Virus record (IMG/VR): IMGVR_UViG_3300045988_089680
Coordinates: 1-64,000 of that record
DNA: 64,000 nucleotides
Strand: one strand, 5' to 3'
From: a virus
Part shown: one piece after another, positions 2,419 through 27,100 of the stretch
How the letters are laid out: each line of letters begins with the position of its first letter
Numbering within the stretch: position 1 is the stretch's first letter
Translations under genes and position numbers: made by a program
The notes under the pieces: generated by a model
Databases searched by the model: none
The model's input: only the letters and a program-made list of their open reading frames with translations
What the model was told of the DNA's origin: nothing

Positions 2419-3849
2419 ATGGATATAAAAGAAATACTTGGTAATGCAAATAGTATAGACCAAAAAATCAACGAGTTAAAGAAGAGGACAGTATGTGTTC
2501 CCTTATGGAGTACATTGCTTACGTACTATGAAACCTCCAATCATAAAGTACTTACAGATACGCTAAGTCTGAAAGACAAAGAGAATGGAGAGAAATCTTC
2601 ACGTATTGCTATTGGATTGGAGAAACTGCTGGCCAACCGTGTAAACCAATTTACATTTGCGATACCTGTAAAACGAGAATACAACACACCTTCTAATGCA
2701 CTGCAATCGGAGATTATTAATGCCATAGAAAGAATCTACGATAATGCACATATTGACAGCATGAATTATAAGCGTGGATTAGCCTATTATGCTTCATGCG
2801 AAATCTTCACTATATGGTATACTGTTAAGAGAGAAAACACAATATACGGATTTCCATGTAGATATAAGCTAAAATGTAAAACCTTCTCTCCTATGGATGG
2901 GGTAAAATTATACCCCATTATTGACGAACTCGATGATATGATAGCTATGTCATTCGAGTACGAAAAGAAGATTTCAGACGTAAAAACAATCACTTTTTTT
3001 GAGACCTTTACAGCAGACCGCCATTACGTATGGAAAAAAGACGACCAAGGTAACACATGGGAAGAAACAACTGCACAAATTATGGATGATGGAACAATCG
3101 AAAGCGGTGAGGAGATTATAATCGATAAGATTCCTGGTGTATATCTATGGCGCCCAACCCCTGTCTACCAAGGGTTGAGTAATATCCGTCATGAGTTGGA
3201 GTATAACCTTTCTCGCAATGGTAATGTAATAGCTTACAATGCCGCACCAATAGTGAAAGTAAAGGGAGGAATCAAAGGAAAAGAAAAGAAAGGAGAAAGC
3301 AATCGTATTTGGCGTGTCGAAAGTGATGGTGACATATCCTATGTATCTTGGAATCAGTCCCAAGAGGCAGTGAATAACCAAACTAATACACTTTTGAAAT
3401 TGTTTTGGATGCTTTCGCAGATGCCGGATATCTCTTTTGACAATATGAAAGGACTTGGCAACATAGGCTATGATGCAAGACAAACAATGCTTACAGACGC
3501 AAGGCTTAAGATTAATGAAGAGTCCGGTCCTTGGAAAGAGTTCTTTGAACGAGAATTCAATGTTATAAAGGCATTCTTGAAAAAGATGAATAATCCTTGG
3601 GAAAAAGAGATAGATAATATAACCTGCAAGCATATAATCACCCCATACGTGCCACAAGATGAAAATAATGATATTAATATAAGGATGAAAGCTAATGGTG
3701 GAATGCCAGTAGAAAGTCAACTTGAATCAATTGTTAAGCTCGGTTGCTCAAAAGACCCTAAAGCAACATTAAAGGAGATAAGAGAGCAGCAGGCTGCATC
3801 TGCATTAGCGCAACAAGTGGCATTTAATTTGGGAGAACAAACCTTATAA
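2419..3849 (+). CDS. portal protein
   Basis: 476 aa. It is the first gene after the promoter module and sits immediately upstream of the MuF-type head morphogenesis gene. Size and position are typical of an SPP1-type portal. Confidence 0.7.
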   Translation: MDIKEILGNANSIDQKINELKKRTVCVPLWSTLLTYYETSNHKVLTDTLSLKDKENGEKSSRIAIGLEKLLANRVNQFTFAIPVKREYNTPSNALQSEIINAIERIYDNAHIDSMNYKRGLAYYASCEIFTIWYTVKRENTIYGFPCRYKLKCKTFSPMDGVKLYPIIDELDDMIAMSFEYEKKISDVKTITFFETFTADRHYVWKKDDQGNTWEETTAQIMDDGTIESGEEIIIDKIPGVYLWRPTPVYQGLSNIRHELEYNLSRNGNVIAYNAAPIVKVKGGIKGKEKKGESNRIWRVESDGDISYVSWNQSQEAVNNQTNTLLKLFWMLSQMPDISFDNMKGLGNIGYDARQTMLTDARLKINEESGPWKEFFEREFNVIKAFLKKMNNPWEKEIDNITCKHIITPYVPQDENNDINIRMKANGGMPVESQLESIVKLGCSKDPKATLKEIREQQAASALAQQVAFNLGEQTL

Positions 3850-4043: not shown

Positions 4044-5603
4044 ATGAAGCCCAAGACACCAAATCAGAAGAAAGCATACGATGCCCTGAACCTACGACTA
4101 ATTAAGTATATGTCGCAGGTTCAGGGCATTTATGATAGAATAGCAAACCAAATAGCTATTGCTGTTGATAGTACTAATTATGACGGCTCAGTTGAATTTA
4201 ATTTTAGAGATTATCCAGAATTAAATCAAACAGTCAAAAATTTAATGTCTGATTATGCAGGACAGATGAATAACCTCATCTATTCTGGAACTTCAAACGA
4301 GTGGAAGGAAAGTAATATAATGCAAGACCTTTTAGCTCGTAAGGTTCTTCGTGCTTATGATTTTGAGAAGGGTGGAGATAAGTATCAGAGATATTTTCAG
4401 CCTAATACAGATGCGCTTAAAGCATTCCAACAAAGAGTAGATAGAGGGATGAATCTCTCTCAAAAGCTCTGGTTACAGTCACAGGCATTGAAGAAAGAAA
4501 TGGAGCAAACCATTTCAGCTGCAATTGAAAGAGGACAATCTGCGGTAGTTCTTAGTAAGAGAATAAGCAAATATCTCTCGGACTTTCCCTCAATGAAAGC
4601 AGACTATGCAGAGAAATATGGAAAAGCGGTAAGCTGTCTTGACTGCCAATATGCTTCTATACGTTTGGCACGAACGGAGATAAACATGGCTTACAGAAAG
4701 GCAGAGCAGATAAGATGGAAACAATTTGACTTCATCTTGGGGTATGAGATTAAATTGAGTAAGCGCCATCCTGCACCAGACATCTGCGATGATCTGATTG
4801 GAATATACCCTAAAGACTTTGTTTTCTTAGGATGGCATCCTAACTGCATGTGTTATGTTGTGCCTATTGTGATGAGTGATGAAGAGTATTATAACCCCAA
4901 ACAAAGTTTAAATAGTTACAAGCCACTGCCAAGTGGTCTTGGTTCTTGGATAGATAAAAACTGTTTACGAATACTATCCTCAAACATAAGGGAAACTTTG
5001 CCATACTGGTTACGTGACAACAAAAGTGTTAGAGATTGTGCCATATTGATAGGAAAAGCGAGGGAAATAGGTAATGATTTTAAGAAAATAGGAGAAACTA
5101 TAGCAGAAAAGGTAGGAGGAATCGTAACACCTGTTAATTATAAATCGTTTTCCTCTATGTATAGAAAGCTTATTACAGAGAATATCGACATCACAGACAT
5201 CAAAGATGCATTGAGAAGTACAATTATTGTCGATAAAGACAAGTTAGAGGAAGTGGTTTTCAATTTAAAACATTTAGATACATTCCTCAGACACAAGGAA
5301 CAAAAGCCTGAAATGTTCAATGGGTATAGTGGAAATATCATTAATCTATCTATGCCCAACAATATTGTGGCAGAGATTCAAGTAAATACAGCCAAAATGA
5401 TTTATGCAAAAGAAACAGAATCAAATGCAAAAAGAATACTCGGAGAAGAGTTATGGAATAAGATACGTTCGGAAACTAATTTGCAAGGAGGATTAGGACA
5501 TAAATATTATGAAGAAATACGGATGTTAAACAAAGTTACAGACCTACCAAAGATAGAAAGACTAAAAAGATTCTCTGAAGAATATTATTCACATTTCAGA
5601 TAA
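4044..5603 (+). CDS. MuF/SPP1-gp7-like minor head protein fused to a C-terminal RelA/SpoT-like (small alarmone synthetase-type) toxin domain
   Basis: MuF motifs are LARTEINMAY and WHPNCMCY. The C-terminal ~170 aa carry RSH-synthetase-like motifs: YKSFSSMYRKL, DIKDALRSTIIV, NGYSGNIINL and AEIQVNTAKMIYAKE. Confidence 0.7.
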   Translation: MKPKTPNQKKAYDALNLRLIKYMSQVQGIYDRIANQIAIAVDSTNYDGSVEFNFRDYPELNQTVKNLMSDYAGQMNNLIYSGTSNEWKESNIMQDLLARKVLRAYDFEKGGDKYQRYFQPNTDALKAFQQRVDRGMNLSQKLWLQSQALKKEMEQTISAAIERGQSAVVLSKRISKYLSDFPSMKADYAEKYGKAVSCLDCQYASIRLARTEINMAYRKAEQIRWKQFDFILGYEIKLSKRHPAPDICDDLIGIYPKDFVFLGWHPNCMCYVVPIVMSDEEYYNPKQSLNSYKPLPSGLGSWIDKNCLRILSSNIRETLPYWLRDNKSVRDCAILIGKAREIGNDFKKIGETIAEKVGGIVTPVNYKSFSSMYRKLITENIDITDIKDALRSTIIVDKDKLEEVVFNLKHLDTFLRHKEQKPEMFNGYSGNIINLSMPNNIVAEIQVNTAKMIYAKETESNAKRILGEELWNKIRSETNLQGGLGHKYYEEIRMLNKVTDLPKIERLKRFSEEYYSHFR

Positions 5604-5668: not shown

Positions 5669-5896
5669 ATGAATGAGTTAGAAATTTGGAAGAAATTGCC
5701 AACAAAAGGTCAGATGTATATATACGACGATTTTGAAAAATTGGCAATAAGACTGCATGTAACCAAAGAGGTTATAATGTGTAACTTCAAGAGAAAAGGC
5801 AAAAGAGAAAAATTGGGGGATTTCACTTCTGCCTTTATAAGAGAAAGCATTTGTTACGGAAAAGAAATAACAAAAGAAGAATATGATAAACTTTGA
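5669..5896 (+). CDS. hypothetical protein (candidate immunity/adaptor)
   Basis: 75-aa ORF between the toxin-domain gene and the HD hydrolase. It overlaps the next gene by 14 nt. Confidence 0.4.
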   Translation: MNELEIWKKLPTKGQMYIYDDFEKLAIRLHVTKEVIMCNFKRKGKREKLGDFTSAFIRESICYGKEITKEEYDKL

Positions 5897-6329
5897 GGAA
5901 GCAGTAGAAATAGCATATAGATACCATAAGGGACAGAAAGACTTAGATGGTAAACCAGTTTTACTTCATCCTTTAGCGGTTGCACTTATGGGTAACAATG
6001 ATACGGAAAGAATAGTGGGGGTATTACATGATGTTATAGAAGATACAGATTGCTCCTTCACAGACTTAGAAAATTTGGGCGTAAGCAAAAATGTCATCAA
6101 TACCTTAGAATTGCTGACTCATACAGAAGACGAATCGTACGGCAAATATCTTTCACGAATAATTACATCAGGCAACATTATAGCCTTAAAGGTAAAGATA
6201 AATGACTTGCGCCATAACATAAGTCGGAATAATGAAGATACCGAACAAAAGAAAAGGATTAAAGCTAAACACCAAAAGGCGTTAAAAAAGATTGAAAACT
6301 TTCTAACGGCATATAATCTTAAAAAATAG
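5883..6329 (+). CDS. HD-domain (p)ppGpp/alarmone hydrolase-like protein (small alarmone hydrolase type)
   Basis: 148 aa. Motifs YHKGQKDLDGKP..LHP and LHDVIEDT match the HDxxED signature of RSH hydrolase domains. Confidence 0.65.
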   Translation: MINFEEAVEIAYRYHKGQKDLDGKPVLLHPLAVALMGNNDTERIVGVLHDVIEDTDCSFTDLENLGVSKNVINTLELLTHTEDESYGKYLSRIITSGNIIALKVKINDLRHNISRNNEDTEQKKRIKAKHQKALKKIENFLTAYNLKK

Positions 6330-6353: not shown

Positions 6354-6577
6354 CTAAGCTTGTCAAATATTCTCTCCATATACTTACACGTATTTTCATA
6401 ATCAGCGTGTCACAGCGAAAAACATACACTTACATTACTCCTTAGTCTAAAAGTTAGCTAAAGTTAAATTATTGATAATCAGTAAATTACGAGTTTATAA
6501 ATTTGGTCAATTCACAAAAAATGACTACCTTTGCAATAGATAATTAAAACAATAACAACTTAAAGATAAGAGCAATG
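6354..6577 (+). repeat. 224-bp regulatory/leader repeat, copy A (includes a promoter: TTTG at 6502-6505, TAccTTTG at 6526-6533)
   Basis: About 88% identical by eye to 16508-16732. It ends at the ATG of the downstream gene. Confidence 0.75.
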
Positions 6578-8620: not shown

Positions 8621-8660
8621 TATTTGTTATTCAAATAATTTTAAGTATATTTGCAAAAAG
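8621..8660 (+). promoter_or_regulatory. conserved 40-bp promoter module, copy 2
   Basis: Sequence tatTTGttattcaaataattttaagTAtaTTTGcaaaaag. Confidence 0.6.
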
Positions 8661-8669
8661 TTACAAGAT

Positions 8670-9068
8670 ATGAAAATTTACACATCATACTTCGCAAACA
8701 GCAAGAAGTTACACAAGGATAATATTGTAGTTATAGGAATAGCTTTGTACCCTCCTAAGTGGTTTGCCGGACCTTCGTTGAAAATGGTATCACCATCATA
8801 CGACATCCTGCACAATTCACAAGACCATGAGGATTACAAAAAGCGTTTCTTCTCTGAAATATTAGCTCATAGAGACCCAAAAGTATTCCTCTCCAACATA
8901 GAGAGATTGGCAAATGGTAAAGATGTAGCTCTTTGCTGCTACGAAAAGCCTGACGATTTTTGCCATCGTCATTTGGTTGCAAAATGGATGAACGAGAAAT
9001 TAGGTCTTCAAATCCAAGAGTATGGGGTTTCTAGGAATCCAACATACATAGAACAGAGTTTGTTTTAG
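8670..9068 (+). CDS. DUF488-family protein
   Basis: 132 aa. The LCCYEKPDDFCHRHLVAKWM motif is typical of DUF488. Confidence 0.55.
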   Translation: MKIYTSYFANSKKLHKDNIVVIGIALYPPKWFAGPSLKMVSPSYDILHNSQDHEDYKKRFFSEILAHRDPKVFLSNIERLANGKDVALCCYEKPDDFCHRHLVAKWMNEKLGLQIQEYGVSRNPTYIEQSLF

Positions 9069-9147
9069 TAAAGTATATTAATATACCGTATGGTTGACAG
9101 CTCGGAAAGACGAGCATTTTTGCGTGTAAAGTAATTTGTTATATTAA

Positions 9148-9220
9148 GCGGAGATAGCTCAGTTAGCAGAGCGCAATGTGTCCATCATTGAGGTCGTTGG
9201 TGCAGTTCCAACTCTCCGCT
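9148..9220 (+). tRNA. atypical tRNA-Gly(UCC)-like gene
   Basis: Cloverleaf folded by hand. The acceptor stem is gcggaga/tctccgc, the anticodon stem caatg/cattg with loop tgTCCat, and the T stem gttgg/ccaac. Discriminator is T. Non-canonical features are G at position 33, a D loop lacking GG, and a T loop TGCAGTT instead of TTCRANT. Confidence 0.55.
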
Positions 9221-9235
9221 CTAAATACTAAGAGC

Positions 9236-10303
9236 ATGAAAGTTACAATAATTGGAGCAGGAAACATAGGAGTAGCTTTCGCAGCTGACCTTTCTATTAA
9301 GGGACATGAAGTTACACTCCTAAAAACATCTTCATACAAATCAGATGCCTTTGATAGACTTATCAAGAACGGCAACAGGGTTTTTCTTAAAGAAAAATCA
9401 ATTTATACAGAAACTGCAATCAAAGAGGTTTCTAAAGACCTCAGCAAGGTTGCAGACGCAGAAGTTATATTTTGTACTATTCAGAGTAACTTCTATGAAG
9501 GTATAGTAGAACGTATACATCAATACCTTCACAAGGATCAGATTGTAGTCTGTGTCTGTAGTTACGCATCTTCCTTCTATTTTGATAAACATTGCAGAAT
9601 ACTACCAATGTTAGTTGAAGCAACTGGTCCATATTTGGAAGGACGAGTAGAGTTGGATGATAAACCAAACGAAGTTGTTTTTCGTGTTGGTTATAGGCAT
9701 GAAGTCATTCCTGTTTCATGCTTTTCTAATCATGATACATGTATAGAGAAACTGCATAGAATTAGCAAAGGTTTTATAGGAAAATATTGCGTGCTTGAAT
9801 CTGCATTACTCAATCCAAATATGGTGTTGCATACGATAGGTTCAATTATGAGTATTCCGAGAATAGAATATTCAAAGGGAAATTTCTGTATGTATCGTGA
9901 AGCATACGCAAGAGGAAATGACTCCACCATCAATCTATTGATGAGACTTGACGAAGAAAAGATGAAAGTCTTAAAAAACTTGGGCTTTTTCAAAACAAGC
10001 GTATTTGAAGCAGGAGGTTTTAATATGTCAGACCCAATAGAGAGTTTGTATCGTTACTCAGAATCTAATGATAGAGCAATCAGCCCTACGTCTGTTCACT
10101 CACGTTACATCACAGAAGATGTTTCAGAGGGATTGGTACTGATGGAAAGTATTGCCAATCATATAGGCTTAGAGCTTCCGGTTACATCATCCCTCATTAC
10201 GCTTGCAAGTGTAGCTTTAGGGATTGACTTCCGAAAGACAGGAAGAACTATTCAGAGATTAGGTATTGTTAACGAAATAGATATGCTTCATGAATGTAGA
10301 TAG
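9236..10303 (+). CDS. NAD(P)-dependent opine (octopine/nopaline) dehydrogenase-family protein
   Basis: Rossmann motif MKVTIIGAGNIGVAFA, plus C-terminal RYITEDVSEGLVLMESIA typical of the octopine_DH helical domain. I moved the start off the tRNA-overlapping track ORF (9176). Confidence 0.6.
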   Translation: MKVTIIGAGNIGVAFAADLSIKGHEVTLLKTSSYKSDAFDRLIKNGNRVFLKEKSIYTETAIKEVSKDLSKVADAEVIFCTIQSNFYEGIVERIHQYLHKDQIVVCVCSYASSFYFDKHCRILPMLVEATGPYLEGRVELDDKPNEVVFRVGYRHEVIPVSCFSNHDTCIEKLHRISKGFIGKYCVLESALLNPNMVLHTIGSIMSIPRIEYSKGNFCMYREAYARGNDSTINLLMRLDEEKMKVLKNLGFFKTSVFEAGGFNMSDPIESLYRYSESNDRAISPTSVHSRYITEDVSEGLVLMESIANHIGLELPVTSSLITLASVALGIDFRKTGRTIQRLGIVNEIDMLHECR

Positions 10304-12368
10304 CGACATAAAAAACAGAACTTTCGGTATTGAAATCGAAATGTGCAATCTTGAAAGGGCGAAGGTAAATTTGCCCGAAGGTTACTCCTGGAGCAAGGAA
10401 GAGAGCATTGATAATACCGATTGTTCAAGCAATAAGCAGTTTGGTGGAGAGGTGAATACCCCTCCACTACATCTTTGCTGCCTAAAAGAGCTGCATGACC
10501 TCCGTTCTGTATACGAATCGATGGTTGTTGCAGGTGGCAAGATTAAGTGGAGTATAGATACTCATGTCCATATATATGTAGGCGATTTGACAGTCGATCA
10601 GCTAAAGAAAGTATATCTATTCTTTTATGTCTGCTATCCATATTTTAAAAGATATGCGAAAATTTCAGATTGGGATGAAAACATATTCAATGCAAAACCT
10701 ATTCCTACAGAAAAATATTTCGAAGGAGTAAAAAATGCACAGACGTTTGATGATTTACAAACTCTCTTCACTAATCAGTCTAAGAAGGGGTTCATACGTC
10801 ATGCAGTGAATATCTCGGCATATTTTAAGACAAAGACGATAGAATTCAGAACGTTTCATGCAACTGATGATTTCTATCGAGCTATGAATTGTGTGTATTC
10901 TGCATATCGCATATTCTATTACGCCATAAGCCACGAATTGGAAGATTATCAATCCATAACATCTTACAAGCAATTTTGTGAGGTTACGGGGCTTAAATAT
11001 GATACTCCAGAAGAGTTATGTCCACTCCTATACCAAGGGAATCCATATAGCGCAATAGAAGCTTTTATGACTATGCCTTTGCCCTACAATTCTAAAATGG
11101 TTTCAGTTCTGTATGATGCCATAAAAGCTAACGGACACAAGGAAATCTGCATAGTAAATGGCTTCATGTATTACTATGAGTTATTCTTCCTTGATAAGGT
11201 GGAAGTATCTATATACTGCCAAGATGCCTACTGCTATCTGCTCTATATGTTGGCAAATGGCAAAACATCACTTACATATAAGGATAAGCTTGCATGGTTA
11301 GAAGATTACAATAACCCGACACCATCAAGACAGCTTGCTTTGGCTCTTTATGCGGTGAAACTGCAAAAGTATTTCATGAGCGAATCGGCAAGAAATAGTG
11401 CCATCTTCGAAGCGTTGAAAATTAAGGCAAGGGAATCTATCGAGAAAACCGAGCAGGTAAATGAGCGATTGATGAGATTACTCACAACATGTGATTTCCA
11501 TGTCGGAACACTAGAAGAAGCCATTAAGAATAAGAAGGTAATCTTCTTTAATTACGGAAGAAAAGAGAAGAATCAGAAGAGAGCATTCAAACTCATTTCT
11601 GAGAACAGTGACTTAAAATCGGACTTTTCAGTCGCAAGAAACGACTATTACAATCTTGTGGAAAGTATTCCTAGCGATAGCTATTTCTACTATTTTAGCA
11701 ATAGTCCTTACCTGAGAAACTTGCATAAAATTGCTTTAATGGACAGTTCAACTGGTGAAAGGTGGGCGGCTGGAAGATACTTATACTGCAATAAGCCAAT
11801 TGTAAAAAAAAGTGTAAACACATCGTATACTTCGTTCAGAGATGAGTGCAACGAGATTGTCCCACCAGACAACTTAGAGATCAGCAACCCAAACTTGTTG
11901 AAAATAGAGGTAGTTTCACCACCGCTGCTGAAGAATCTTCAAAGAAAGTATATCAAAAAGATAGATCAAGTTTCCAGTGCGGTATTCCCATTTGTGGTTA
12001 AGTACGATAAATATACTCTTGGGGGATTTGGATTTACGTTATCTAAGTATGACAAATACGACTTGTTCCAAATTTCGGATTTTTGCACCAACAACGCAAT
12101 TCCAAGGTTGAGTAAGCTAATTCTTTACTGCGTTTTATCCGTAGGAGTACAGAAATATCTTAATAGGAGAATGCACAAGTTTATCAACAAGGTTCTATCT
12201 CTTGCTTACACACATAAGCCAGTGAGTATGAAATATCGTGGTGTGTACAAAAAAGTTAAAGAGCACTGCACATCATCTTATCTTGCTTACGAAGGAATAC
12301 TTGGTCTATACCCTACGAGTAAGGAAATCATCGAGAAATATCAAAAATCGTTGAAGAATGGAAAATGA
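10290..12368 (+). CDS. amidoligase (COOH-NH2 ligase, glutamine-synthetase-like fold) domain protein with a ~475-aa unknown C-terminal region
   Basis: N-terminal motifs FGIEIEM, GGEVNTPPL, THVHIY, RHAVNISAY and TIEFRTFHAT match Amidoligase_2. It overlaps the upstream gene by 14 nt. Confidence 0.6.
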   Translation: MNVDSDIKNRTFGIEIEMCNLERAKVNLPEGYSWSKEESIDNTDCSSNKQFGGEVNTPPLHLCCLKELHDLRSVYESMVVAGGKIKWSIDTHVHIYVGDLTVDQLKKVYLFFYVCYPYFKRYAKISDWDENIFNAKPIPTEKYFEGVKNAQTFDDLQTLFTNQSKKGFIRHAVNISAYFKTKTIEFRTFHATDDFYRAMNCVYSAYRIFYYAISHELEDYQSITSYKQFCEVTGLKYDTPEELCPLLYQGNPYSAIEAFMTMPLPYNSKMVSVLYDAIKANGHKEICIVNGFMYYYELFFLDKVEVSIYCQDAYCYLLYMLANGKTSLTYKDKLAWLEDYNNPTPSRQLALALYAVKLQKYFMSESARNSAIFEALKIKARESIEKTEQVNERLMRLLTTCDFHVGTLEEAIKNKKVIFFNYGRKEKNQKRAFKLISENSDLKSDFSVARNDYYNLVESIPSDSYFYYFSNSPYLRNLHKIALMDSSTGERWAAGRYLYCNKPIVKKSVNTSYTSFRDECNEIVPPDNLEISNPNLLKIEVVSPPLLKNLQRKYIKKIDQVSSAVFPFVVKYDKYTLGGFGFTLSKYDKYDLFQISDFCTNNAIPRLSKLILYCVLSVGVQKYLNRRMHKFINKVLSLAYTHKPVSMKYRGVYKKVKEHCTSSYLAYEGILGLYPTSKEIIEKYQKSLKNGK

Positions 12369-13086
12369 AGATAGATGGAAATACGCAAAAGTTGATATAA
12401 ACCTCATAGATGAGGTAGAAATCAATGCAAACGAAATGTCGGGTGAAGACTTCGCCCAACTAACAGACAACATTGCTAAGTCTGGATTGAGTAGTGTGCC
12501 TACCTGTATCAAGAAGGATAATGGTAGATACATCATGATCAGCGGTAATCATCGTTTGAGGGCTTGCAAGAAACTGCACTATAAAATGCTTGGCATCTTA
12601 TATGTAGAAGAGAGCGAGATTACAAATGATGAAGCTATTGCTATTGAATTATCTCACAACTCCCTTCATGGTGAAGCTAATGTTAGCATTTTGAAGAAGT
12701 TGTTTGCATCAATTCAATCTATCGACTTTAAGAAGTTTGCCCATGTGAACATCGACGAGATTAAGCCAATAAGCACAGAGGGTATAGATGTATATGCCAT
12801 GCAGGAGAATTTCGTATTCACCATCATCCTCTACCCTAGTTCATTTGCTAGTCTGGACACATTGTATGGAGACATTCGTGAGCAAGCTCGCAAAAGTGAT
12901 GCTCTAGTTCTAGCTTCCGAAGAAGATAACGAGAAGACCCTGCTTAAGATTCAACAGGACATAGGTAAGGAGTTTGGCATAAAATCTCCAAGTATCTCAT
13001 TTGCCAAATTGCTAGAGTTAGCGAGTGAACGTTTAATCGAAATAAAGGAAGGAGAAAAAGAAAATGATTTGGAGCATAACAAGTAA
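12358..13086 (+). CDS. ParB/Srx-fold (ParB N-terminal domain-like) protein
   Basis: Motifs YIMISGNHRLRACKKL and IELSHNSLHGE. It overlaps the upstream gene by 11 nt. Confidence 0.6.
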   Translation: MENEDRWKYAKVDINLIDEVEINANEMSGEDFAQLTDNIAKSGLSSVPTCIKKDNGRYIMISGNHRLRACKKLHYKMLGILYVEESEITNDEAIAIELSHNSLHGEANVSILKKLFASIQSIDFKKFAHVNIDEIKPISTEGIDVYAMQENFVFTIILYPSSFASLDTLYGDIREQARKSDALVLASEEDNEKTLLKIQQDIGKEFGIKSPSISFAKLLELASERLIEIKEGEKENDLEHNK

Positions 13087-13927
13087 AGAAGAGATGGAGA
13101 GCTATGGAATTTCTTCCGTCTTCAAATATTATCGAGAAGCCTTAGGAAAAGAAAATGTCAAACTAGCTGTTGTAGATGAAAACGATAAGCTAGACTTCTT
13201 ACAAAAGGAAGATGTGGCATTACTTAGAACCGCAAGTGAATCTCTCATCAAGACTATCCGAGCAAAAGGTGTAAAAACAACTGCAGAGGATTTCTCTAAA
13301 TACGAATTGGTTAAGGATAAGGAAAAGGTCTTCCGTTTCCTTTGTTTTTGCGGTATTAGGGCACCGAAGCAATATCAAAACCATTTATCATCATTACAAG
13401 AAGGTAAGACATATTTTGTTAAACCTAGATATGGCAGTGATAGCTTTGGTATATCAGAGAAAAGCATCTGTCGTACCCCCAAAAAGGTAATAGAACAGAT
13501 GAGATACATTAAAGAAGAGCTTGGAATGGAAAGTATAGTTGAGGAGTATATTGCTGGCTCTGATTGCACAGTAACGTGCATTAATAACTGCACAACAAAC
13601 GAGCTACTTCTGTGTTCAATCTCGATTGATTGCGACGAAACCAATGGCATCCAAACACGAGACTGTAAGGTTGGTTTTAAAGAATGCTGTTCAGCAATAA
13701 ATGATGTTGAGTTAAATCGTTTGGCAAGCGAAATATTCCATTACTTAGAATTAAAGTCTCACGCAAGAATTGATTTTCGCAAGGGAATAGATGGTAGATA
13801 TTATCCTATAGATATCAATCTGCTTCCTGGGCTTGGTCCATTAGACCATCTTTCGAAATCACTTTTGTTGTGCAAGAATATGTCGTATATAGATGCTTTG
13901 AAAGCAGTCATAGCATCTGCAAGTTAG
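13064..13927 (+). CDS. ATP-grasp ligase (D-Ala-D-Ala ligase-like)
   Basis: Motifs YFVKPRYGSDSFGI, VEEYIAGSDCTV and ARIDFRKG..YPIDINLLPGLGP. It overlaps the upstream gene by 23 nt. Confidence 0.6.
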   Translation: MIWSITSKEEMESYGISSVFKYYREALGKENVKLAVVDENDKLDFLQKEDVALLRTASESLIKTIRAKGVKTTAEDFSKYELVKDKEKVFRFLCFCGIRAPKQYQNHLSSLQEGKTYFVKPRYGSDSFGISEKSICRTPKKVIEQMRYIKEELGMESIVEEYIAGSDCTVTCINNCTTNELLLCSISIDCDETNGIQTRDCKVGFKECCSAINDVELNRLASEIFHYLELKSHARIDFRKGIDGRYYPIDINLLPGLGPLDHLSKSLLLCKNMSYIDALKAVIASAS

Positions 13928-13938
13928 AAAGGTTGATT

Positions 13939-14286
13939 ATGGCAAAGGTAAGAAGAACAGAATTAAAAAAGATTGCCGCTGCTTACGAAAAGAAGGGCGG
14001 CAATATGGCTGCTACGGCAGTAGCTTTGGGCATTACACGCCAAGCCTTATATAACTGGAGAAAAGAGGATGAGAAGTTAGCCAAGATGTTGGACGATATA
14101 GATGAAGGCATTCTTGACTTTACTGAAAGCAAGTTGGTTGAAAAGGTGAACGAAGGCAACCTAACTGCAATAATCTTCCTTCTGAAAACCAAGGGCAAGA
14201 AGCGTGGCTATGTCGAGCAAGTAGATAACAGATTAGTAGAAAATCCATTCGAGAAGTTAATGAAGGAGCTTCCCGATGATGATTAG
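13939..14286 (+). CDS. terS: terminase small subunit
   Basis: HTH segment AATAVALGITRQALYNWRKE plus IIFLLKTKGKKRGY. It lies just upstream of terL. I chose the ATG at 13939 rather than the track start at 13870. Confidence 0.65.
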   Translation: MAKVRRTELKKIAAAYEKKGGNMAATAVALGITRQALYNWRKEDEKLAKMLDDIDEGILDFTESKLVEKVNEGNLTAIIFLLKTKGKKRGYVEQVDNRLVENPFEKLMKELPDDD

Positions 14287-14398
14287 AAAGTAGGGAAAAT
14301 GGGGATATAAGCAATGATACGAGAGTAATGAGAACTGGGAGTTTCTTATGCAAGACGTATTATAAATAAAAGATAGTAATATTTCACAATAAATAGGA

Positions 14399-14803
14399 AT
14401 GAGTAAACGAGGATATTACGAATACAACCCTGTTATTTATCCACGGATATTATGCGTCGCGATTGGAATGAACCAAGAAGATGCAAATAAATGCTTTGAA
14501 GGTAGAAATGATGAAATACTGATGGTTGACTTCAGAAACTCTGATGCACTTACTTTCGATAGCGTAATTCAGAAAAAAGATGGAAAATATGCCGTGTTTG
14601 TAAACTTTGCAAATAAGTCTGCAATGACTATGGGTATTTGCTGCCATGAGGCAAGTCATGTTTGTGATGCGATAGAAGAAGATATTGGCATGAAACACGG
14701 GGGTGAGCCATCTGCCTATCTTATTGGTTGGATATCCTCATGTATCAACAAGGCTCGTTTGGGCATTGGTGATTTCGTAGAGATTAAGGATAGAGAAAAA
14801 TAA
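14399..14803 (+). CDS. small HExxH metallopeptidase-like protein
   Basis: 134 aa with CCHEASHVCDAIEEDIG...GEPSAYLIGW. A paralog is at 46911-47327. Confidence 0.5.
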   Translation: MSKRGYYEYNPVIYPRILCVAIGMNQEDANKCFEGRNDEILMVDFRNSDALTFDSVIQKKDGKYAVFVNFANKSAMTMGICCHEASHVCDAIEEDIGMKHGGEPSAYLIGWISSCINKARLGIGDFVEIKDREK

Positions 14804-14816
14804 TATTATAAAGAAG

Positions 14817-16331
14817 ATGTTTGAACAGAAGGCTAAAAAGAAAATGATTGCATGGCGCAATGATTGGTGTCTCTTCGCCAAAGAAGTCTTGAAGGCTCAC
14901 CTTGACGAAGAGCAAAAGGCTATATTGCGTTCTGTTCAAAAGAATAAAATGACAACGGTAGCCAGTGGAACTGCAAGGGGTAAGGATTACATCGCTGCCG
15001 TAGCTGCTTTATGTTTCCTCTACCTCACTCCTCGCTTTGGTAAGGATGGCAGTTTGGAAAAGAATACCAAGATTGCCCTTACGGCGCCGACAGGAAGACA
15101 GGTAACAAACATCATGATTCCAGAGGTAGCACGTTTATACAAGAAGGCCGGCTTTCTTCCCGGTCGTTTGTTGGCGGATGGTATCAGAACCAATTATGAG
15201 GAATGGTATTTGACTGGTTTCAAGTCTTCCGACGACAACATAGAGGCATGGTCGGGATTTCACGCAGTAAACACCATGTTCATCGTAACCGAAGCTTCGG
15301 GTATCTCAGATACCATCTATAATGCAATCGAAGGTAACCTACAGGGAAACTCTCGATTGCTATTGGTATTCAACCCTAACGTTACAACGGGATATGCAGC
15401 CAATTCCATGAAGTCTCCTCGTTTCAAGAAGTTCAGACTATCATCCCTTAACGCAGAGAATGTAGTCAGAAAAAAAATTATTATTCCTGGTCAAGTTGAC
15501 TATGAATGGGTAGCTGACAAGGTCTCAGCATGGGCACAGAAAATCAGAAAGTCTGAGTTTGATGAAGGTCGTGGCGACTTTATTTGGGAAGGAGGCTATT
15601 ATACTCCCAACGACCTCTTCCGCGTTAAGGTTCTCGGTATATTCCCGAAGGTTTCAGAAGATACTCTCATCCCTTACGAATGGTGTGAGATTGCACATAA
15701 ACGATGGGAAGAGCTCAAAGAAAGTGGATTCATCACCCATAAACCAGTACGCTTAGGTGTCGATGTAGCGGGTATGGGTCGCGATAGGTCTTGCTTCATT
15801 CCAAGACAAGGGAATTATGTATCAGAAATAAGATGTCATAACTCAGGAGGAAGGGCAGATCACATGGCAGTCGCAGGTCAAGTAGCTAACTATCTTAAAA
15901 CGGATCACCGTAACAAGGCATTCATTGATACAATAGGTGAGGGAGCGGGTGTTTACTCACGATTGATAGAACAGAATATACTAACAGCATTCTCCTGTAA
16001 GTTTTCTGAAGGAGTGAGAAACAAACATGATGTCACTGGTTGTTACACATTCGCTAATATGAGAGCCTATTTATTTTGGTGTATCCGTGATTGGCTTAAT
16101 CCAAAGAATGGCTTTTTTGCAGCTCTTCCACCAGATGAAGAGTTAGACCAAGAATTGTGCGAGCCACATTGGTTCTTTCAGTCTGATGGCTCCATCATCA
16201 TAGAGCCGAAAGAAGAAATCAAAAAACGCCTCAAACGCTCTCCCGATAAGATGGACGCACTTGCTAATACATTCTATCCATATGACTATGATAAGGATAA
16301 TGATATTCAACTATTAAATAGTGTTGTATAG
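14817..16331 (+). CDS. terL: terminase large subunit
   Basis: 504 aa. Features are a Walker A-like SGTARGKD, ALTAPTGRQ, a Walker B-like FIVTEASG, and the nuclease-domain motif GVDVAGMGRDRS. Confidence 0.85.
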   Translation: MFEQKAKKKMIAWRNDWCLFAKEVLKAHLDEEQKAILRSVQKNKMTTVASGTARGKDYIAAVAALCFLYLTPRFGKDGSLEKNTKIALTAPTGRQVTNIMIPEVARLYKKAGFLPGRLLADGIRTNYEEWYLTGFKSSDDNIEAWSGFHAVNTMFIVTEASGISDTIYNAIEGNLQGNSRLLLVFNPNVTTGYAANSMKSPRFKKFRLSSLNAENVVRKKIIIPGQVDYEWVADKVSAWAQKIRKSEFDEGRGDFIWEGGYYTPNDLFRVKVLGIFPKVSEDTLIPYEWCEIAHKRWEELKESGFITHKPVRLGVDVAGMGRDRSCFIPRQGNYVSEIRCHNSGGRADHMAVAGQVANYLKTDHRNKAFIDTIGEGAGVYSRLIEQNILTAFSCKFSEGVRNKHDVTGCYTFANMRAYLFWCIRDWLNPKNGFFAALPPDEELDQELCEPHWFFQSDGSIIIEPKEEIKKRLKRSPDKMDALANTFYPYDYDKDNDIQLLNSVV

Positions 16332-16521: not shown

Positions 16522-16732
16522 TAAATTCTCCATATACTTACACATATTTTCATAATCGGTGTGTCACAGCGAAAAATACACACCTACATTACTCCTTGGT
16601 TTAAAAGTTAGCTAAAGTTAAACTATTGGTTATCAGTAAATTACAAGTTTTGAAATTTGGTCAATAGCAAAAAAATGACTACCTTTGCAACAGATAATTA
16701 AAACAATAACAACTTAAAGTTAAAGAGCAATG
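16508..16732 (+). repeat. 224-bp regulatory/leader repeat, copy B (includes promoter TAccTTTG)
   Basis: Aligns with 6354-6577 and ends at the ATG at 16730. Confidence 0.75.
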
Positions 16733-17536: not shown

Positions 17537-18211
17537 ATGGATATGATAAGTAATTTGGTTGCAGAGGAAAAACCAGAATATAAGATAAAGGAAAGTGGAG
17601 ATTTTTCATCACTTACATCAGTTGAATTATTAGCAATATTGTTTGGCAAGAGTTCGACATCAACTCTTCAAAAGGCAAGGGGTATTCTTAATCTAACAGA
17701 TGGTAGTATAAGAGGTATCTCTAAACTTACTACGAAACAGATAAGAGAAGTAACGAATTTCACAGAACAAAAGGCTAATGCTGTCCTTGCAGCATGCGAA
17801 CTTGGACGAAGAGCGCAAATAGAAGAATCCAATAATATCAACCTCGGTAGTGCATATGGCATATACAACTTCATGAAGCCACGAATAGGTAGATTAGACC
17901 ATGAAGAAGTTTGGGTAATGCTAATGGATAACGCCTTTAATCTAAAGAAGGTAAAAAAGATAAGCAGCGGAGGACTTACAGAAACTGCATTTGATGTGCG
18001 TGTTATTTTAAAAGAAGCACTTCTCAATAATTCTACAGTGATAGCCGTTGCACATAATCATCCAAGTGGTAATAAAAGACCAAGCAAAGATGATGATGGA
18101 GTAACACGGAAGCTACAACAAGCATGTGACACCATGAGAATAAAACTGATAGACCATGTAATCGTAACAGATTTAGGTTATTATAGTTTCTCAGAAGAAG
18201 GTAAACTATAA
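17537..18211 (+). CDS. radC: RadC-like JAB/MPN-domain protein
   Basis: JAMM motif AVAHNHPSGNKRPSKDD, plus an N-terminal helix-hairpin-helix-like region. Confidence 0.75.
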   Translation: MDMISNLVAEEKPEYKIKESGDFSSLTSVELLAILFGKSSTSTLQKARGILNLTDGSIRGISKLTTKQIREVTNFTEQKANAVLAACELGRRAQIEESNNINLGSAYGIYNFMKPRIGRLDHEEVWVMLMDNAFNLKKVKKISSGGLTETAFDVRVILKEALLNNSTVIAVAHNHPSGNKRPSKDDDGVTRKLQQACDTMRIKLIDHVIVTDLGYYSFSEEGKL

Positions 18212-18240: not shown

Positions 18241-18280
18241 AATGTTTGCTATTCAAATATTTTTAAGTATATTTGCAAAC
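18241..18280 (+). promoter_or_regulatory. conserved 40-bp promoter module, copy 3 (head operon)
   Basis: Sequence aatgTTTGctattcaaatatttttaagTAtaTTTGcaaac. Confidence 0.6.
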
Positions 18281-18294
18281 AAAAGCGTGTGAAG

Positions 18295-24128: not shown

Positions 24129-27100
24129 ATGCCAGGTTTAAAGTTTGACATAACAGGAGATAATTCAGCTGTACTGAGAGCCTTTAAGGGTGTGCAAGAT
24201 GGTGTGGCACAGACAGCAAGAGTAGTCGAGCAGCAGGGTCAGAGCATTGAGAATGTTTTCAATCGCATCAAGTCTGTTGCATCGGTAGCTGTTGCTGGCT
24301 TTACGGCAAAGGAAATCATCAGCACACTGGGTACTGTCCGAGGAGAGTTTCAGCAGTTTGAGATTGCCTTTGAAACCATGCTCGGTAGCGGGCAGAAGGC
24401 AAAGGGAATGATTTCGGACCTCGCCAACCTTGCTGCTTCTACACCTTTTGACATGAAGGGTGTGGTAGATGGAGCAAAGCAGCTCCTTGCATACGGATTT
24501 GCAGCCAACGAGATTACCGATACCATGAGAAGACTCGGTGATGTATCTGCAGGATTGGGATTGAACCTTCAAGACCTCACATGGCTCTATGGTACCACGA
24601 TGGTGCAAGGTCGATTGTTCACAAGAGACTTGATGCAATTTACAGGTCGCGGTATTCCTTTGACAGAGGAACTTGCCAAGCAGTTCGGAGTTACCAAGGA
24701 TAAGGTTTCGGAATTGGTGACCGCAGGTAAGGTTGGTTTCCCCGAAGTCAAGAAGGCTATCGAAAGCCTTACCAATGAGGGTGGTAAGTTCGGTGGATTG
24801 ATGGAAAAGCAATCTCACTCTATTACTGGTCAGGTAAGCAATATTAAAGATACTATCGAAATGGCTATCAATGACCTTGGCACTCAGACAGAAGGCTTGA
24901 TGAATGATGCTTTGGACATCACATCTACGGTTATTGACCATTGGAAGGAGATAGGTGAGGTTATCCTTGCAGCCGCATCTGCCATCGGTCTTTATAAGGC
25001 AATGGCGGTAAGTGTAGCAGCCTTTGATACAGCTACAGCAAATGTAGGCTATGCGGCTGAGTTGTCAGCCCTTGACGCATTACTTCCAAAGAAGGAAGAA
25101 GTAAAGAAGACAGACCTTGAAGAAGCAGTAGCCAAAGGTCAGTTATCAGCAGCACAGGCGGAATTGGTAGCATCCAAGCGTGAAGAGGTTGCAGCTTACG
25201 TTGCCGAATTGCAAACCAAGGCAAAGGTTATGCAAGACGAGGTTCACGTATTGGAGAATAAGCTTGCGCTACAAGATAACGAAGTACAATCACTCCAAGA
25301 TGCTTATGATGCCCTTGACGATTATGTATCAGCAGAAGTCAGAGATACGGCAGCAACAAACCTCAATACGGCAGCAAACGAAAGAAACAATATAGCAAAC
25401 CAACTTAAAGCAGCAAGAGAGAAAGCTGCAACGGCTGCAACCAATGCCAATACAGCATCCCAAGGATTGAATACCGCAGCGACAGCTCGCGATACAGCAA
25501 CCAAAGGAATATGGGCACAGGTTACTCTCTTATGCGAGAAAGCACAGAGGGCATGGAATGCTTCTATGTTCTCTAGTCCATTATTTTTGATAGCAGCTGC
25601 CATAGTAGCTACTACATATGCTGTGTATAAGCTTGCTACTGCAGAATCGGCTCACGAAGCAGCCGTAAGAAAATCCAATGAAGCATGGGATGAGTTCGAT
25701 AACAAGGTTAAAGAACGTCAGCAGAATATAGAAAGCCTTATCAGAACCATACAATCTGAAACGGCAACGGAATTCGAGAAAGCAGAAGCCTACCAAAAGC
25801 TCTCTAATCTCGCTCCTCAACTTACAGATCAGTATGACCAAGCTGCCATAGCTTCTCTTGACTTTTCTAAGGCCCAAAAGGAAGTGGCAGAAAGCATGGA
25901 TGAGTCAAAATACGACAAAGCCGTAGAAGATGTAAAAAAATACAAAGATGAAGTAAGCAAACTCCAGCAATTATTATCAAGTGATGCAAAGTACAACGGA
26001 GGAGGTCAAGGAATACTACTCAGTCGTCAATTAGAGACAGCAGAAGCAGCATTAGATCGTGCAGAGGACAGACTCAATAATATCATTTCCCTACGTAATC
26101 AAGCTGCCGAAAACGCAAAGCCTATAGAGGTTCGCTTGCAAGAAGCGCAGGAGAACGAGAGTGTTCGTCAAGAAATCTTTGACTTCTACGATGAAGCTAT
26201 GACGCTAGCTAACGACTGGCAATCAGCCAACGAAACCATCAACTACGCCACTGGCGAGAGTAGATTGGACGCATTCATCAATAAAGCTCAGATGGAAATA
26301 GCAGATCTTCGTGAAGACATTAAGAAGAATCCAGCTGATCTGAATCTCCGCATGCAGGAGTCTGAGAAAACAAAGGTTCTGGACAACCTCTTAGCGATGA
26401 AGCGTAATTGGGCGGTTACTGGCGCAACAACCATTCCTTTGATTTTTAGGGCTCAATGGAACACCGCCAAACAATCCCTCAATCAAGCCAAAACAAAGGC
26501 ACAAGCGTTGGTTAATGCGGGTTCTACGGAAACCTACCAGCAATCTTACAACAAGGCGCAGCGAAAATACTACGCAGCCCAAAAGAAGGTTGCTGCTATG
26601 GAGAAAAATAAGAGCAAATACACCACTGCTCAGTACGAAACCGCCATCCAAGACTTGAAAGCAGCCAAGGATGCCTACTCTAAGCTAGGTGGTGATGTAA
26701 GTGGGAATGCAGCGAAGGCAGCAGCAACGGCACGTAAGACTCGCATCAAGGAGGTAAACCAAGCTATCAAGGTCCGGGAGGAGTTGAACAACCGCTTGAA
26801 GGCTTTGCAGCAGAAAAATACTGACGAGACTATCTCCCTTATGCAGGAAGGCACGGAGAAGAAGCTTGCTCAAATCAAGAATGACTATGCCAAGCGCAAA
26901 GCCGAGATTGACAAGCAGGAAGCCGAGTTCAAGAAGAAGAACAAGGAAGCTGGCAAGAAAGAAGCCCTTACTTCTGCTCAGTCTAATGCTCTCAGTAAGG
27001 CAAGAGACCTCGCTACCCAAGAATACAACAAGAAGCTTGATGAGGTCAACAGGGAAGCCCTCACCTCTATGCGCGACTACTTGAAGGAGTATGGTTCTCT

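Follow-up and report, generated by a model that had tools for sequence, protein, structure and literature searches.

A phage module that links a tRNA-Gly gene to a Dam-like/GNAT-like protein and a ParB-like partner, and its possible role in DNA hypermodification

We analyzed a 64,000-nt stretch of viral DNA (IMG/VR virus record IMGVR_UViG_3300045988_089680, positions 1 to 64,000; hereafter the window), focusing on four overlapping genes, A to D, and the tRNA gene in front of them. Comparison of about 240 related loci showed that the locus belongs to a module whose conserved core consists of a DUF488 gene, a tRNA-Gly gene, a gene for a Dam-like/GNAT-like protein (here protein B), and a gene for a ParB-like protein (protein C), and which is present in elements as far apart as Bacteroidota prophages and phages of Mycobacterium and Gordonia. 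The reading that we favour, with a probability of roughly one half, is a late phage DNA-hypermodification (anti-restriction) operon that is Mom-like and Gly-tRNA-dependent, with an adduct that is further extended to a peptide- or opine-like form.

The original prediction, made from the letters of the window, had described four translationally coupled genes placed between a DUF488 gene with an odd tRNA and terS, and the coordinates of the open reading frames (ORFs) bore out both the overlaps and the tight packing. Four plus-strand ORFs overlap successively by 14, 11, and 23 nt: A, a predicted opine (octopine/nopaline-type) dehydrogenase of 355 amino acids (9236..10303); B, an amidoligase/Dam-like/GNAT-like protein of 692 amino acids (10290..12368); C, a predicted ParB/Srx-fold protein of 242 amino acids (12358..13086); and D, a predicted Ddl-like ATP-grasp ligase of 287 amino acids (13064..13927). 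Upstream on the same strand are the DUF488 gene (N3a subclade, 132 amino acids, 8670..9068) and the tRNA-Gly gene (anticodon UCC, 9148..9221). The mechanical ORF A (9176..10303) would overlap the tRNA; we preferred the ATG at 9236 (MKVTIIGAGNIG) because it lies 14 nt past the tRNA and coincides with the start of the Rossmann-domain Pfam alignments. The motifs originally quoted for the four assignments (GAGNIG, RYITEDVSEGL, FGIEIEM, THVHIY, TIEFRTFHAT, and SGNHRLRA) are all present in the translations.

Protein B matched phrog_2443 in PHROGs at 4.5e-171 and, by Pfam, is composed of Amidoligase_2, DAM-like-phage2, and GNAT-phage-like domains from the N to the C terminus. The Amidoligase_2 domain (PF12224, residues 39-198, 10404..10883 on the plus strand) scored 1.6e-15 and 58.1 bits against a cut-off of 22, as had been predicted. 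The other 475 residues had been considered unknown sequence, which proved incorrect: they hold the DAM-like-phage2 domain (PF22556, residues 240-419, 11007..11546, plus strand; 1.4e-89, 299.1 bits, cut-off 27) and the GNAT-phage-like domain (PF22559, residues 537-687, 11898..12350, plus strand; 4.7e-34, 118 bits, cut-off 27). We propose that the Dam-like domain is a DNA-binding or base-presenting module and that the GNAT-like domain is an aminoacyl (glycyl) transferase. No NCBIfam model matched B, and sequence searches of the PDB with B, a Dam-like/GNAT profile, or a DUF488 profile returned nothing usable.

An AlphaFold2 model of B built from 26 diverse homologues (predicted local distance difference test score, pLDDT, 87) matched one solved structure type per domain, in the order YbdK, E. 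coli Dam, and GNATs, with modest E-values (1e-3 to 1e-2). The amidoligase fold spans about residues 1-235 and matched YbdK (1r8g) at 8e-4 and phage amidoligases in BFVD at about 1e-10 using Foldseek; residues E15, E17, G52, T57, P59, R170, E185, and R187 are invariant in the 26 homologues. These data assign the N-terminal domain to Amidoligase_2, with a modelled YbdK-like fold and a predicted activity. For the Dam-like domain, Foldseek returned two E. coli Dam structures, 4rtq and 2ore (E-values of about 1e-2, probability at least 0.9), and there was no sequence-level match of this domain to Dam in the PDB. The GNAT fold of the C-terminal domain was supported by both the model and Foldseek. 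Mu Mom (8bv8) was its top GNAT match in the PDB by E-value (1.1e-3), and many other GNATs matched at 1e-3 to 1e-2 over about 160-200 columns. In the alignment of the 26 homologues, D597, S646, K648, Y649, R650, and G651 of the GNAT-like domain are invariant, and the loop past strand beta-4 reads NNAIPRLSK, without the usual Gly-rich coenzyme A (CoA) pyrophosphate motif.

To define what is conserved around B, we compared two sets of viral loci with bacterial and archaeal genomes. All 80 IMG/VR loci of the close set (67-100% identity to B) share the order DUF488, tRNA or tRNAs, opine dehydrogenase where present, B, ParB-like gene, ATP-grasp gene, and terS, and a genome scan recovered the same arrangement in about 30 Bacteroidota prophage or genome loci, down to 25% identity. 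The diverse set, 80 viral loci found with a profile of shorter proteins (~430-460 amino acids), encodes core proteins that consist of the Dam-like and GNAT-like parts and lack an amidoligase or any other ATP-dependent activating domain. The gene that immediately follows the GNAT-like gene encodes a ParB-like protein at 80/80 of the diverse viral loci and at about 42 of 48 distant bacterial or archaeal genome loci. DUF488 precedes the GNAT-like gene at every Bacteroidota locus and at 58/80 of the diverse viral ones. Based on these two viral counts, the conserved unit is DUF488, Dam-like/GNAT-like, and ParB-like rather than the four-gene set.

The shorter core was found in Proteobacteria, Chloroflexi, Planctomycetes, Bacilli, Actinobacteria, and one contig of a Methanobacterium metagenome-assembled genome (MAG), as well as in cultured Mycobacterium, Gordonia, and Faecalibacterium phages (among them Mycobacterium phages Taptic, Jeon, and Argie and Gordonia phage Clawz). 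Taptic gp73 and Clawz gp29 both combine PF22555 (DAM-like-phage1) with PF22559. At least 560 IMG/VR contigs carry the core. For B itself, a metagenome protein collection held 768 homologous clusters at 90% identity that match the full-length form and come mostly from gut metagenomes; at the 50%-identity representative level there were 278 matches, with full-length homologues down to 24% identity. A nucleotide search with the operon against cultured phages gave no match. Two Gordonia phage records, those of Jollymon (PV467702) and Sting (PQ201089), label their Dam-like/GNAT-like gene (genes 29 and 28, respectively) as 'methyltransferase' or 'DNA methyltransferase', probably a misannotation prompted by the Dam-like domain.

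The core also contains a tRNA gene, whose identity points to glycine. ARAGORN called the window tRNA as tRNA-Gly, and it scored 47.4 bits on the Rfam tRNA model (RF00005), compared with 64.7 for the canonical second tRNA-Gly of most relatives. Its sequence and Rfam alignment show that it keeps G1-C72, C2-G71, G3-C70, U73, C35, and C36, and that it deviates by AG for GG in the D-loop, UGCAGUU for UUCGAAU in the T-loop, and G33. The identity set recognized by glycyl-tRNA synthetase in staphylococcal non-proteogenic tRNA-Gly is G1-C72, C2-G71, U73, C35, and C36 (PMC7826273). Judged by these features, the window tRNA retains the glycine identity elements and, like the tRNAs of many relatives, carries T-loop and D-loop changes of the non-proteogenic type. 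We propose that it is a dedicated glycine donor.

We counted the same features over 95 distinct module-linked tRNA-Gly sequences. U73 is present in 94/95 and a GCG start in 88/95; anticodons are UCC (38), ACC (27), CCC (21), and GCC (1). To our knowledge, the ACC anticodon is essentially absent from bacterial tRNA-Gly sets. The T-loop UGC occurs in 31/95, of which 30 also lack GG in the D-loop; overall, the D-loop is without GG in 46/95, and U33 is lost in at least 16/95. An apparent hypervariability of anticodon-loop positions 32-34 in the type-1 tRNA was withdrawn: 57/64 copies share AUACCAU, and UGUCCAU in the window is a single variant.

In at least 74/80 close relatives, the interval from DUF488 to the operon contains a tRNA-Gly gene or a pair of them. 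Among the 80 diverse viral loci, 33 of the 42 tRNAs within 8 kb are tRNA-Gly, and the 29 same-strand tRNAs within 600 nt upstream are all Gly (27) or Gly-like with odd anticodon loops (2); at the distant genome loci, 7/15 tRNAs are Gly. The 60,973-bp record of Mycobacterium phage Taptic has just one annotated tRNA within positions 1-57,610, a tRNA-Gly that abuts gp73, and seven more Mycobacterium phages are annotated with the order tRNA-Gly, GNAT-like gene, ParB-like gene. The tRNA-Gly is therefore part of the module, genetically linked to the GNAT-like gene across phyla.

Most close relatives (loci L003-L081; for example, L003 at 1232-1384) carry two tandem tRNA-Gly genes, one non-canonical (UGC T-loop, mostly ACC) and one near-canonical (UUC T-loop, GG D-loop, CCC or ACC). 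Only the non-canonical tRNA-Gly is present in the window and in loci L002, L014, L047, and L055. In L028 (9805-9878), the non-canonical tRNA has the anticodon ACG and was called as tRNA-Arg by ARAGORN with a body that is still of the Gly type, indicating that the anticodon can drift.

Protein C matched phrog_7405 at 3.3e-66 and about ten ParB-like PHROGs at 1e-7 to 1e-10. Other matches were weaker: Pfam ParB_N at 0.0025 (18.3 bits, under the cut-off of 26.3), TIGR00180 at 26.9 bits against a cut-off of 58.45, and a PDB ParB (4umk) at 5e-3. Across 94 non-redundant ParB-like partners, the motifs NANxM, SGNHRxxA (at least 80%), and QLSHN are conserved. The predicted ParB/Srx fold of C is thus clear by PHROGs and the SGNHRxxA motif and weak in Pfam, and the original call stands in that form. 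C had no match to helix-turn-helix (HTH) or ParB C-terminal families in Pfam, and no ParA gene was seen in the neighbourhood; we did not class it as a canonical chromosome- or plasmid-partition ParB. From its adjacency in 80/80 loci, from which a dependence of B on C is drawn, C would be an obligate partner of the GNAT-like protein.

The DUF488 protein, a core component of the module, matched PF22751 (1.2e-12) and phrog_2450 (5.5e-39), with C90, E92, and C98-H99-R100 invariant. Its AlphaFold2 model (pLDDT 86) retrieved generic alpha/beta folds only in Foldseek (E>=0.02), and no significant fold match was found in the PDB. DUF488 has reportedly been placed near the rhodanese-phosphatase superfamily, a link that plays no part in our reading.

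The remaining enzymes of the window operon are more restricted. Protein A matched Octopine_DH (PF02317) at 2.6e-28 and 99.4 bits against a cut-off of 30, in addition to an N-terminal NAD Rossmann domain, and its best PDB match was N-(1-D-carboxyethyl)-L-norvaline dehydrogenase (CENDH, 1bg6; 1.8e-16 over residues 4-344). In agreement with the original prediction, A is a predicted full-length member of the opine-dehydrogenase family. Its candidate catalytic motifs, NPNMVLHTIGS and RYITEDV, were read from the translation. Protein D scored 5.1e-8 and 33.1 bits for Dala_Dala_lig_C (cut-off 24), 8.4e-8 and 32.9 bits for ATP-grasp_3 (cut-off 23.2), and 5.8e-5 for the D-Ala-D-Ala ligase 8evx in the PDB. 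NCBIfam Ddl models gave 20-37 bits against cut-offs of 243-495, and a Pfam scan detected no recognisable Ddl N-terminal domain. D is predicted to be a Ddl-like ATP-grasp ligase, as originally called, and not a Ddl orthologue. PADLOC returned no meaningful defence-system match for A-D.

To determine how these genes vary, we counted them in 107 loci with full-length B. The opine dehydrogenase occurs in 71/107, the same number in which all four genes occur together, and its presence tracks the type of ATP-grasp protein. Type-II ATP-grasp, found in 19 loci from three lineages, never occurs with the opine dehydrogenase; types I and III do. A simple identity threshold linking the two genes failed, as loci L084 and L091 combine an opine dehydrogenase with the third ATP-grasp type. 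In 8/107 loci, the opine dehydrogenase is replaced by a ~400-amino-acid LKR/saccharopine-dehydrogenase-like enzyme (best PDB match AASS, 8e8u, 1e-38), which is predicted to have an unrelated fold and to perform the same reductive condensation of an amine with a 2-oxo acid. Other loci have a classical acetyltransferase plus a ~285-amino-acid protein. Among the Bacteroidota genome loci, the opine dehydrogenase is confined to the 65-100% identity clade and the ATP-grasp gene is often missing.

Collectively, these findings show that the amidoligase fusion, opine dehydrogenase, and ATP-grasp ligase are lineage-specific, swappable, and dispensable accessories of one Bacteroidota branch. The idea that the four genes form a system therefore holds in that they co-occur in other loci, and does not hold in that they are not a conserved unit. 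The accessory-slot enzymes all act on amines or carboxylates and are chemically coherent, which supports the tailoring of an amine-bearing adduct. The ~285-amino-acid protein, which had no Pfam or NCBIfam match, lies directly upstream of B in L095 (7136-8002) and in the same place in L096, L106, L107, L111, and L112. It belongs to distant Bacteroidota versions of the module, often following a classical GNAT acetyltransferase, and is itself a tailoring candidate.

We hypothesized that these genes together modify phage DNA. Since the core protein has no ATP-dependent activating domain, it would need a pre-activated donor, and the tRNA-Gly encoded alongside it, which is in many cases unfit for decoding, suggests that this donor is Gly-tRNA(Gly). 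DNA is suggested as the acceptor by the obligatory fusion to a Dam-like domain, the obligatory ParB-fold neighbour, and the position by the packaging genes. Precedents exist for such a transferase and for its partner. The GNAT enzyme Mu Mom takes glycine from Gly-tRNA(Gly) and attaches it to adenine N6 of double-stranded DNA, where the adduct rearranges to N6-carbamoylmethyl-adenine (PMC13219725), and a phage thymine dioxygenase acting on double-stranded DNA requires a ParB-like activator (PMC13229309).

In the proposed mechanism, the host glycyl-tRNA synthetase would charge the phage tRNA-Gly, and the GNAT-like domain would then move glycine from Gly-tRNA(Gly) onto an exocyclic base amine in double-stranded phage DNA. 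The acceptor would most likely be adenine N6, given the fused Dam-like domain, and the ParB-like protein would help by loading DNA or activating the enzyme, by analogy with the ParB-dependent T-dioxygenases of phages. In the Segatella-phage lineage, the amidoligase domain and ATP-grasp ligase would extend the glycyl adduct through amide bonds. The opine dehydrogenase would reductively condense an amine with a 2-oxo acid (N-carboxyalkylation), the amine being either the free amine of the adduct or that of a building block that the ATP-grasp ligase then ligates. The outcome would be a peptide- or opine-like side chain on DNA packaged by the adjacent terminase. Of the three roles first suggested for the operon, this keeps DNA hypermodification; we found no specific support for the other two, protein tagging and synthesis of a metabolite or cell-wall precursor.

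Several observations weigh against this proposal. Comparison of 42 GNAT-like domains with 54 Mom homologues plus Mu Mom in hhalign gave a probability below 1%, and by template modelling score (TM-score) Mom (0.46) ranks below Naa50 (0.55), so that Mom is the best match by E-value only. Given this lack of sequence relation and the equally good fits elsewhere, the suggestion that B works like Mom comes from gene linkage. The Dam-like label is a Pfam name joined by weak Foldseek matches (~1e-2). Seven divergent close relatives carry other tRNAs at the site (Asn, Met, Ile, Lys, Ser, Arg), and tRNA-Gly was present in just 32/80 diverse viral loci, so a host tRNA would have to serve elsewhere. The order of the steps, the DNA or base acceptor, and the substrates of the tailoring enzymes are what we infer from domains and neighbours. 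A literature search found no paper describing the module or its workings, and an earlier computational mention is possible.

The original prediction had recognised no described phage system in this gene combination, which agrees with that search in part. The protein family is already named in Pfam, PHROGs, and public annotation, and the NCBI name of close B homologues is 'GNAT-like putative antirestriction protein [Segatella copri]'. Based on this naming, the host is most likely Segatella (Prevotella) copri.

Among known systems, the closest in proposed chemistry is Mu Mom (PF25680, 8bv8). Both are phage proteins with a GNAT fold; Mom is late-acting, anti-restriction, and the best GNAT match by E-value, and it uses Gly-tRNA(Gly) on DNA, as the linkage of the GNAT-like gene to a tRNA-Gly gene and DNA-associated domains suggests here. 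We considered whether the GNAT-like domain is a divergent Mom homologue and dropped this candidate, as hhalign of the domain against Mu Mom was not significant with either a single sequence or a family profile. PF25680 did not match B at E<=0.01, and all 120 listed Mom homologues carry PF25680. No reliable residue alignment onto the essential R111, S124, D149, and R151 of Mom was obtained, and the GNAT-like family has its own invariant set. Unlike the present module, which is known from genes alone and shares no sequence relation with it, Mom is a single protein of 231-241 amino acids that uses a host tRNA and has an HTH-like insertion in place of the Dam-like domain; it has no ParB-like or DUF488 partner, no tRNA of its own, and no tailoring enzymes.

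The tRNA has its nearest counterpart in staphylococci, where non-proteogenic tRNA-Gly species with UGC or UGU for UUC in the T-loop undergo normal charging but bind poorly to EF-Tu and ribosomes, and supply the GNAT-fold Fem transferases FmhB, FemA, and FemB (PMC7826273). The module-linked tRNAs share the identity elements, and the UGC change of the window tRNA and 31/95 linked tRNAs nearly always accompanies loss of GG. The likeness is one of sequence, and the settings differ: the staphylococcal tRNAs are chromosomal, confined to staphylococci, and used for peptidoglycan cross-bridges, whereas those described here are virus-encoded, occur in many phyla, and are linked to a DNA-associated enzyme.

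The combination of a core step with combinatorial tailoring enzymes resembles the post-replicative thymidine-hypermodification clusters, whose core activates the base and transfers to it, of phages M6, ViI, and PaMx11, which encode 5-HMUDK and aGPT-Pplase. Amidoligase genes have been noted in metagenomic clusters of this kind, and PaMx11 carries glycine adducts with N-acetylation of the unmasked amine (PMC8989533). Pfam and PHROGs scans revealed no deoxyuridine monophosphate (dUMP) hydroxymethylase, 5-HMUDK kinase, aGPT-Pplase, or TET/JBP genes near the operon. Here, in contrast, the core consists of the Dam-like/GNAT-like protein, ParB-like protein, DUF488, and tRNA, and the likely target is a purine amine and not 5-hydroxymethyldeoxyuridine (5-hmdU).

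Protein C invites comparison with the ParB-like activator of the thymine dioxygenases (5mYOX). The activator is a short protein of the ParB fold that joins a nucleotide-binding domain to a C-terminal one, lacks an obvious HTH, and is encoded beside the phage DNA-modifying enzyme; C shares this general build and the conserved GxxRxxA motif (SGNHRLRA). The enzyme there is an Fe/2-oxoglutarate dioxygenase, in contrast to the GNAT here. The N-terminal domain of B, in turn, resembles the Amidoligase_2 systems of phages (Iyer et al. 2009; phrog_2443), which frequently include a gamma-glutamyl cyclotransferase or GATase, and phrog_2443 proteins have been annotated in gut Clostridium prophages (PMC11318856). 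For those systems, protein tagging or cell-surface change is a prediction; they differ further in that the domain here is fused to a Dam-like/GNAT-like protein and most members of the wider module have no amidoligase.

The alternative that survives best, although we consider it unlikely, is that DNA is modified but tRNA-Gly is not the donor. The GNAT-like domain would then use acyl-CoA, as most GNATs do, or an acyl-phosphate or adenylate made by the amidoligase or by a ParB/Srx-fold kinase; the tRNA would serve translation, replace host tRNAs cleaved by defence systems, or provide an RNase P/Z signal for mRNA processing. By fold, many GNATs that depend on CoA match equally well; a nearby tRNA-Gly is missing from 48/80 diverse loci, and the seven relatives with other tRNAs suggest that the site can act as a general tRNA slot. 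ParB-fold proteins include kinases, and both C of the window and Taptic gp74 gave weak SerK matches. Such a role for the tRNA is, however, hard to square with a linked tRNA that is almost always Gly across unrelated host phyla with very different codon usage. Glycine identity is kept and decoding features are often lost (U33, G18G19, and the positions of T54 and pseudouridine 55), ACC anticodons are common, and in the 57.6 kb examined of the 61-kb Taptic record there is no second annotated tRNA. The NNAIPRLSK loop, without its Gly-rich motif, also argues against acyl-CoA.

We regard it as rather unlikely that the reaction is tRNA-dependent with an acceptor other than DNA. A protein (virion, terminase, or host), a peptidoglycan precursor, or a lipid would receive glycine, then further residues from the amidoligase and ATP-grasp ligase, and an opine cap, in the manner of Fem, MurM, L/F-transferase, or MprF, with the ParB-like protein as a nucleoside triphosphate (NTP) switch. 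Known tRNA-dependent GNAT-fold transferases mostly act on peptidoglycan, proteins, and lipids, according to PMC7826273 and PMC13219725, and the only described precedent for a non-proteogenic-type tRNA-Gly is cell-wall synthesis (PMC7826273). Ddl-like ATP-grasp enzymes and amidoligases are likewise typical of peptide and cell-wall chemistry. Yet the transferase never occurs without its fused Dam-like domain or without a ParB-fold protein encoded after it, and the module sits among DNA-packaging genes. Pfam yielded no match to the Fem, L/F-transferase, or MprF families, the family is already annotated as antirestriction in public records, and the hosts, which include Gram-negative Bacteroidota, Actinobacteria, and, by one MAG contig, the archaeon Methanobacterium, have unrelated envelopes.

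It is improbable, in our estimate, that the opine dehydrogenase, ATP-grasp ligase, and amidoligase form an independent small-molecule pathway that is merely co-transcribed and yields an opine-type or dipeptide metabolite (metallophore-like or signalling) or a cell-wall precursor analogue. Opine dehydrogenases normally use free amino acids, and CENDH is the best PDB relative of A; Ddl-like ligases normally join free amino acids, and the dehydrogenase co-varies with ATP-grasp type, as two steps of one route would. Against this, the amidoligase is covalently fused to the Dam-like/GNAT-like protein, and the accessory genes were seen only inside the module, with overlapping stops and starts (their occurrence outside it was not searched for). 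The swaps in the accessory slot (LKR-like dehydrogenase, acetyltransferase) also fit the tailoring of a common adduct better than one metabolite. Finally, Gly-tRNA(Gly) is the target of GNAT toxins such as TacT (PMC13219725), and phages carry tRNAs that counter tRNA-targeting systems (PMC12409363), but it is very improbable that the GNAT-like domain acylates or acetylates Gly-tRNA(Gly) in this way to manipulate host translation, with the phage tRNA as a decoy or resistant replacement, as this leaves the Dam-like fusion, ParB-like partner, late packaging-linked position, and tailoring enzymes without explanation, and no toxin-antitoxin-like partner was seen.

The genes around the module are consistent with late expression. 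A Bacteroidetes-type promoter-like site (TTTG-N-TAnnTTTG) at 8623..8653 on the plus strand, 17 nt upstream of the DUF488 gene, is likely the start of the transcription unit; the window holds 12 matches to its consensus, compared with an expectation of 3.0. Between DUF488 and the tRNA, a weak hairpin with a 5-bp stem precedes a T-run, ATTTTTG (9100..9115, plus strand; a consensus match only), and may be an attenuator or processing site. No terminator-like sites were seen on the plus strand from 9116 to 15145. Based on this interval and the promoter-like site, a single late transcript would seem to cover DUF488, the tRNA, A-D, and the terminase genes. The small terminase gene terS (13939..14286, plus strand, ATG at 13939; terS PHROGs and HTH domains) begins 11 nt past D and is also directly downstream of the module in relatives; the large terminase gene terL follows at 14817..16331 on the plus strand (phrog_2, 1.4e-29).

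The site upstream of DUF488 is one of three near-identical copies of a 30-31 nt sequence of the Bacteroidetes -33/-7 type, TTTG[T/C]TATTCAAATAnTTTTA[A]GTATATTTG, at 2373-2402, 8623-8653, and 18245-18275, which precede the portal gene, the DUF488 gene, and an ORF at 18289. They are probably a phage-specific (late?) promoter family. A second near-identical pair at 6502-6533 and 16656-16687 (TTTGGTCAAT..CAAAAAAATGACTACCTTTG) precedes a 383-amino-acid ORF (6575) and an ORF at 16730.

An SPP1-type portal gene (2419-3849; PF05133, 5.5e-26) and a gene for a 519-amino-acid protein with a weak RelA/SpoT-like match (4044-5603) lie upstream of terS and terL, an unusual order for a packaging module that may reflect mosaicism or a second element. 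Also upstream of the module is a small HD-domain phosphohydrolase (5883-6329; phrog_990, 4.8e-35), with 83-86% copies in 3/80 IMG/VR loci (L002, L047, and L055) and 31-33% matches elsewhere in the locus in five others. Downstream, a 224-amino-acid ORF (17537-18211) with the motif AVAHNHPSGNKRPSKDD resembles a RadC/JAB-type domain as read from its translation alone, and a 1703-amino-acid ORF in the structural region (24129-29240) is a candidate tape measure or polyvalent protein. A tyrosine integrase on the minus strand (47738-48991; Arm-DNA-bind_5, SAM_5, and Phage_integrase domains) fits a prophage. It adjoins a minus-strand gene (49324-50319) whose product has an HSDR_N-like domain of type I restriction systems. 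At ~48 kb, both GC content and strand bias shift, likely a prophage boundary or module switch.

We put forward, tentatively, that the module represents an unrecognised class of DNA hypermodification, with a virus-encoded tRNA-Gly as donor, a Dam-like/GNAT transferase, and ParB and DUF488 partners, and with extension in Segatella phages by two ligases and an opine cap. The components new to such a system would be its own non-proteogenic-type tRNA-Gly, the ParB-fold partner, DUF488, and opine- or peptide-type tailoring. If correct, no nucleobase modification of a peptide or opine type would have been described before, nor a virus-encoded tRNA for a non-translational purpose. Transfer of an amino acid from tRNA to DNA, to date demonstrated only for Mu Mom, would become a widespread viral strategy, carried by many phages that include abundant Segatella copri gut prophages and cultured Mycobacterium and Gordonia phages. 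These cultured carriers of the core make the proposal directly testable.

The proposal would also give a function to three families of phage 'dark matter', DAM-like/GNAT-phage-like, their ParB-like partner, and DUF488-N3a, and would explain odd phage tRNA genes annotated as tRNA-Gly(ACC/CCC/UCC) or left without assignment. It predicts bulky DNA adducts able to block restriction enzymes and CRISPR nucleases. Such adducts could distort sequencing signals in gut metagenomes, and they could serve enzymatic DNA labelling.

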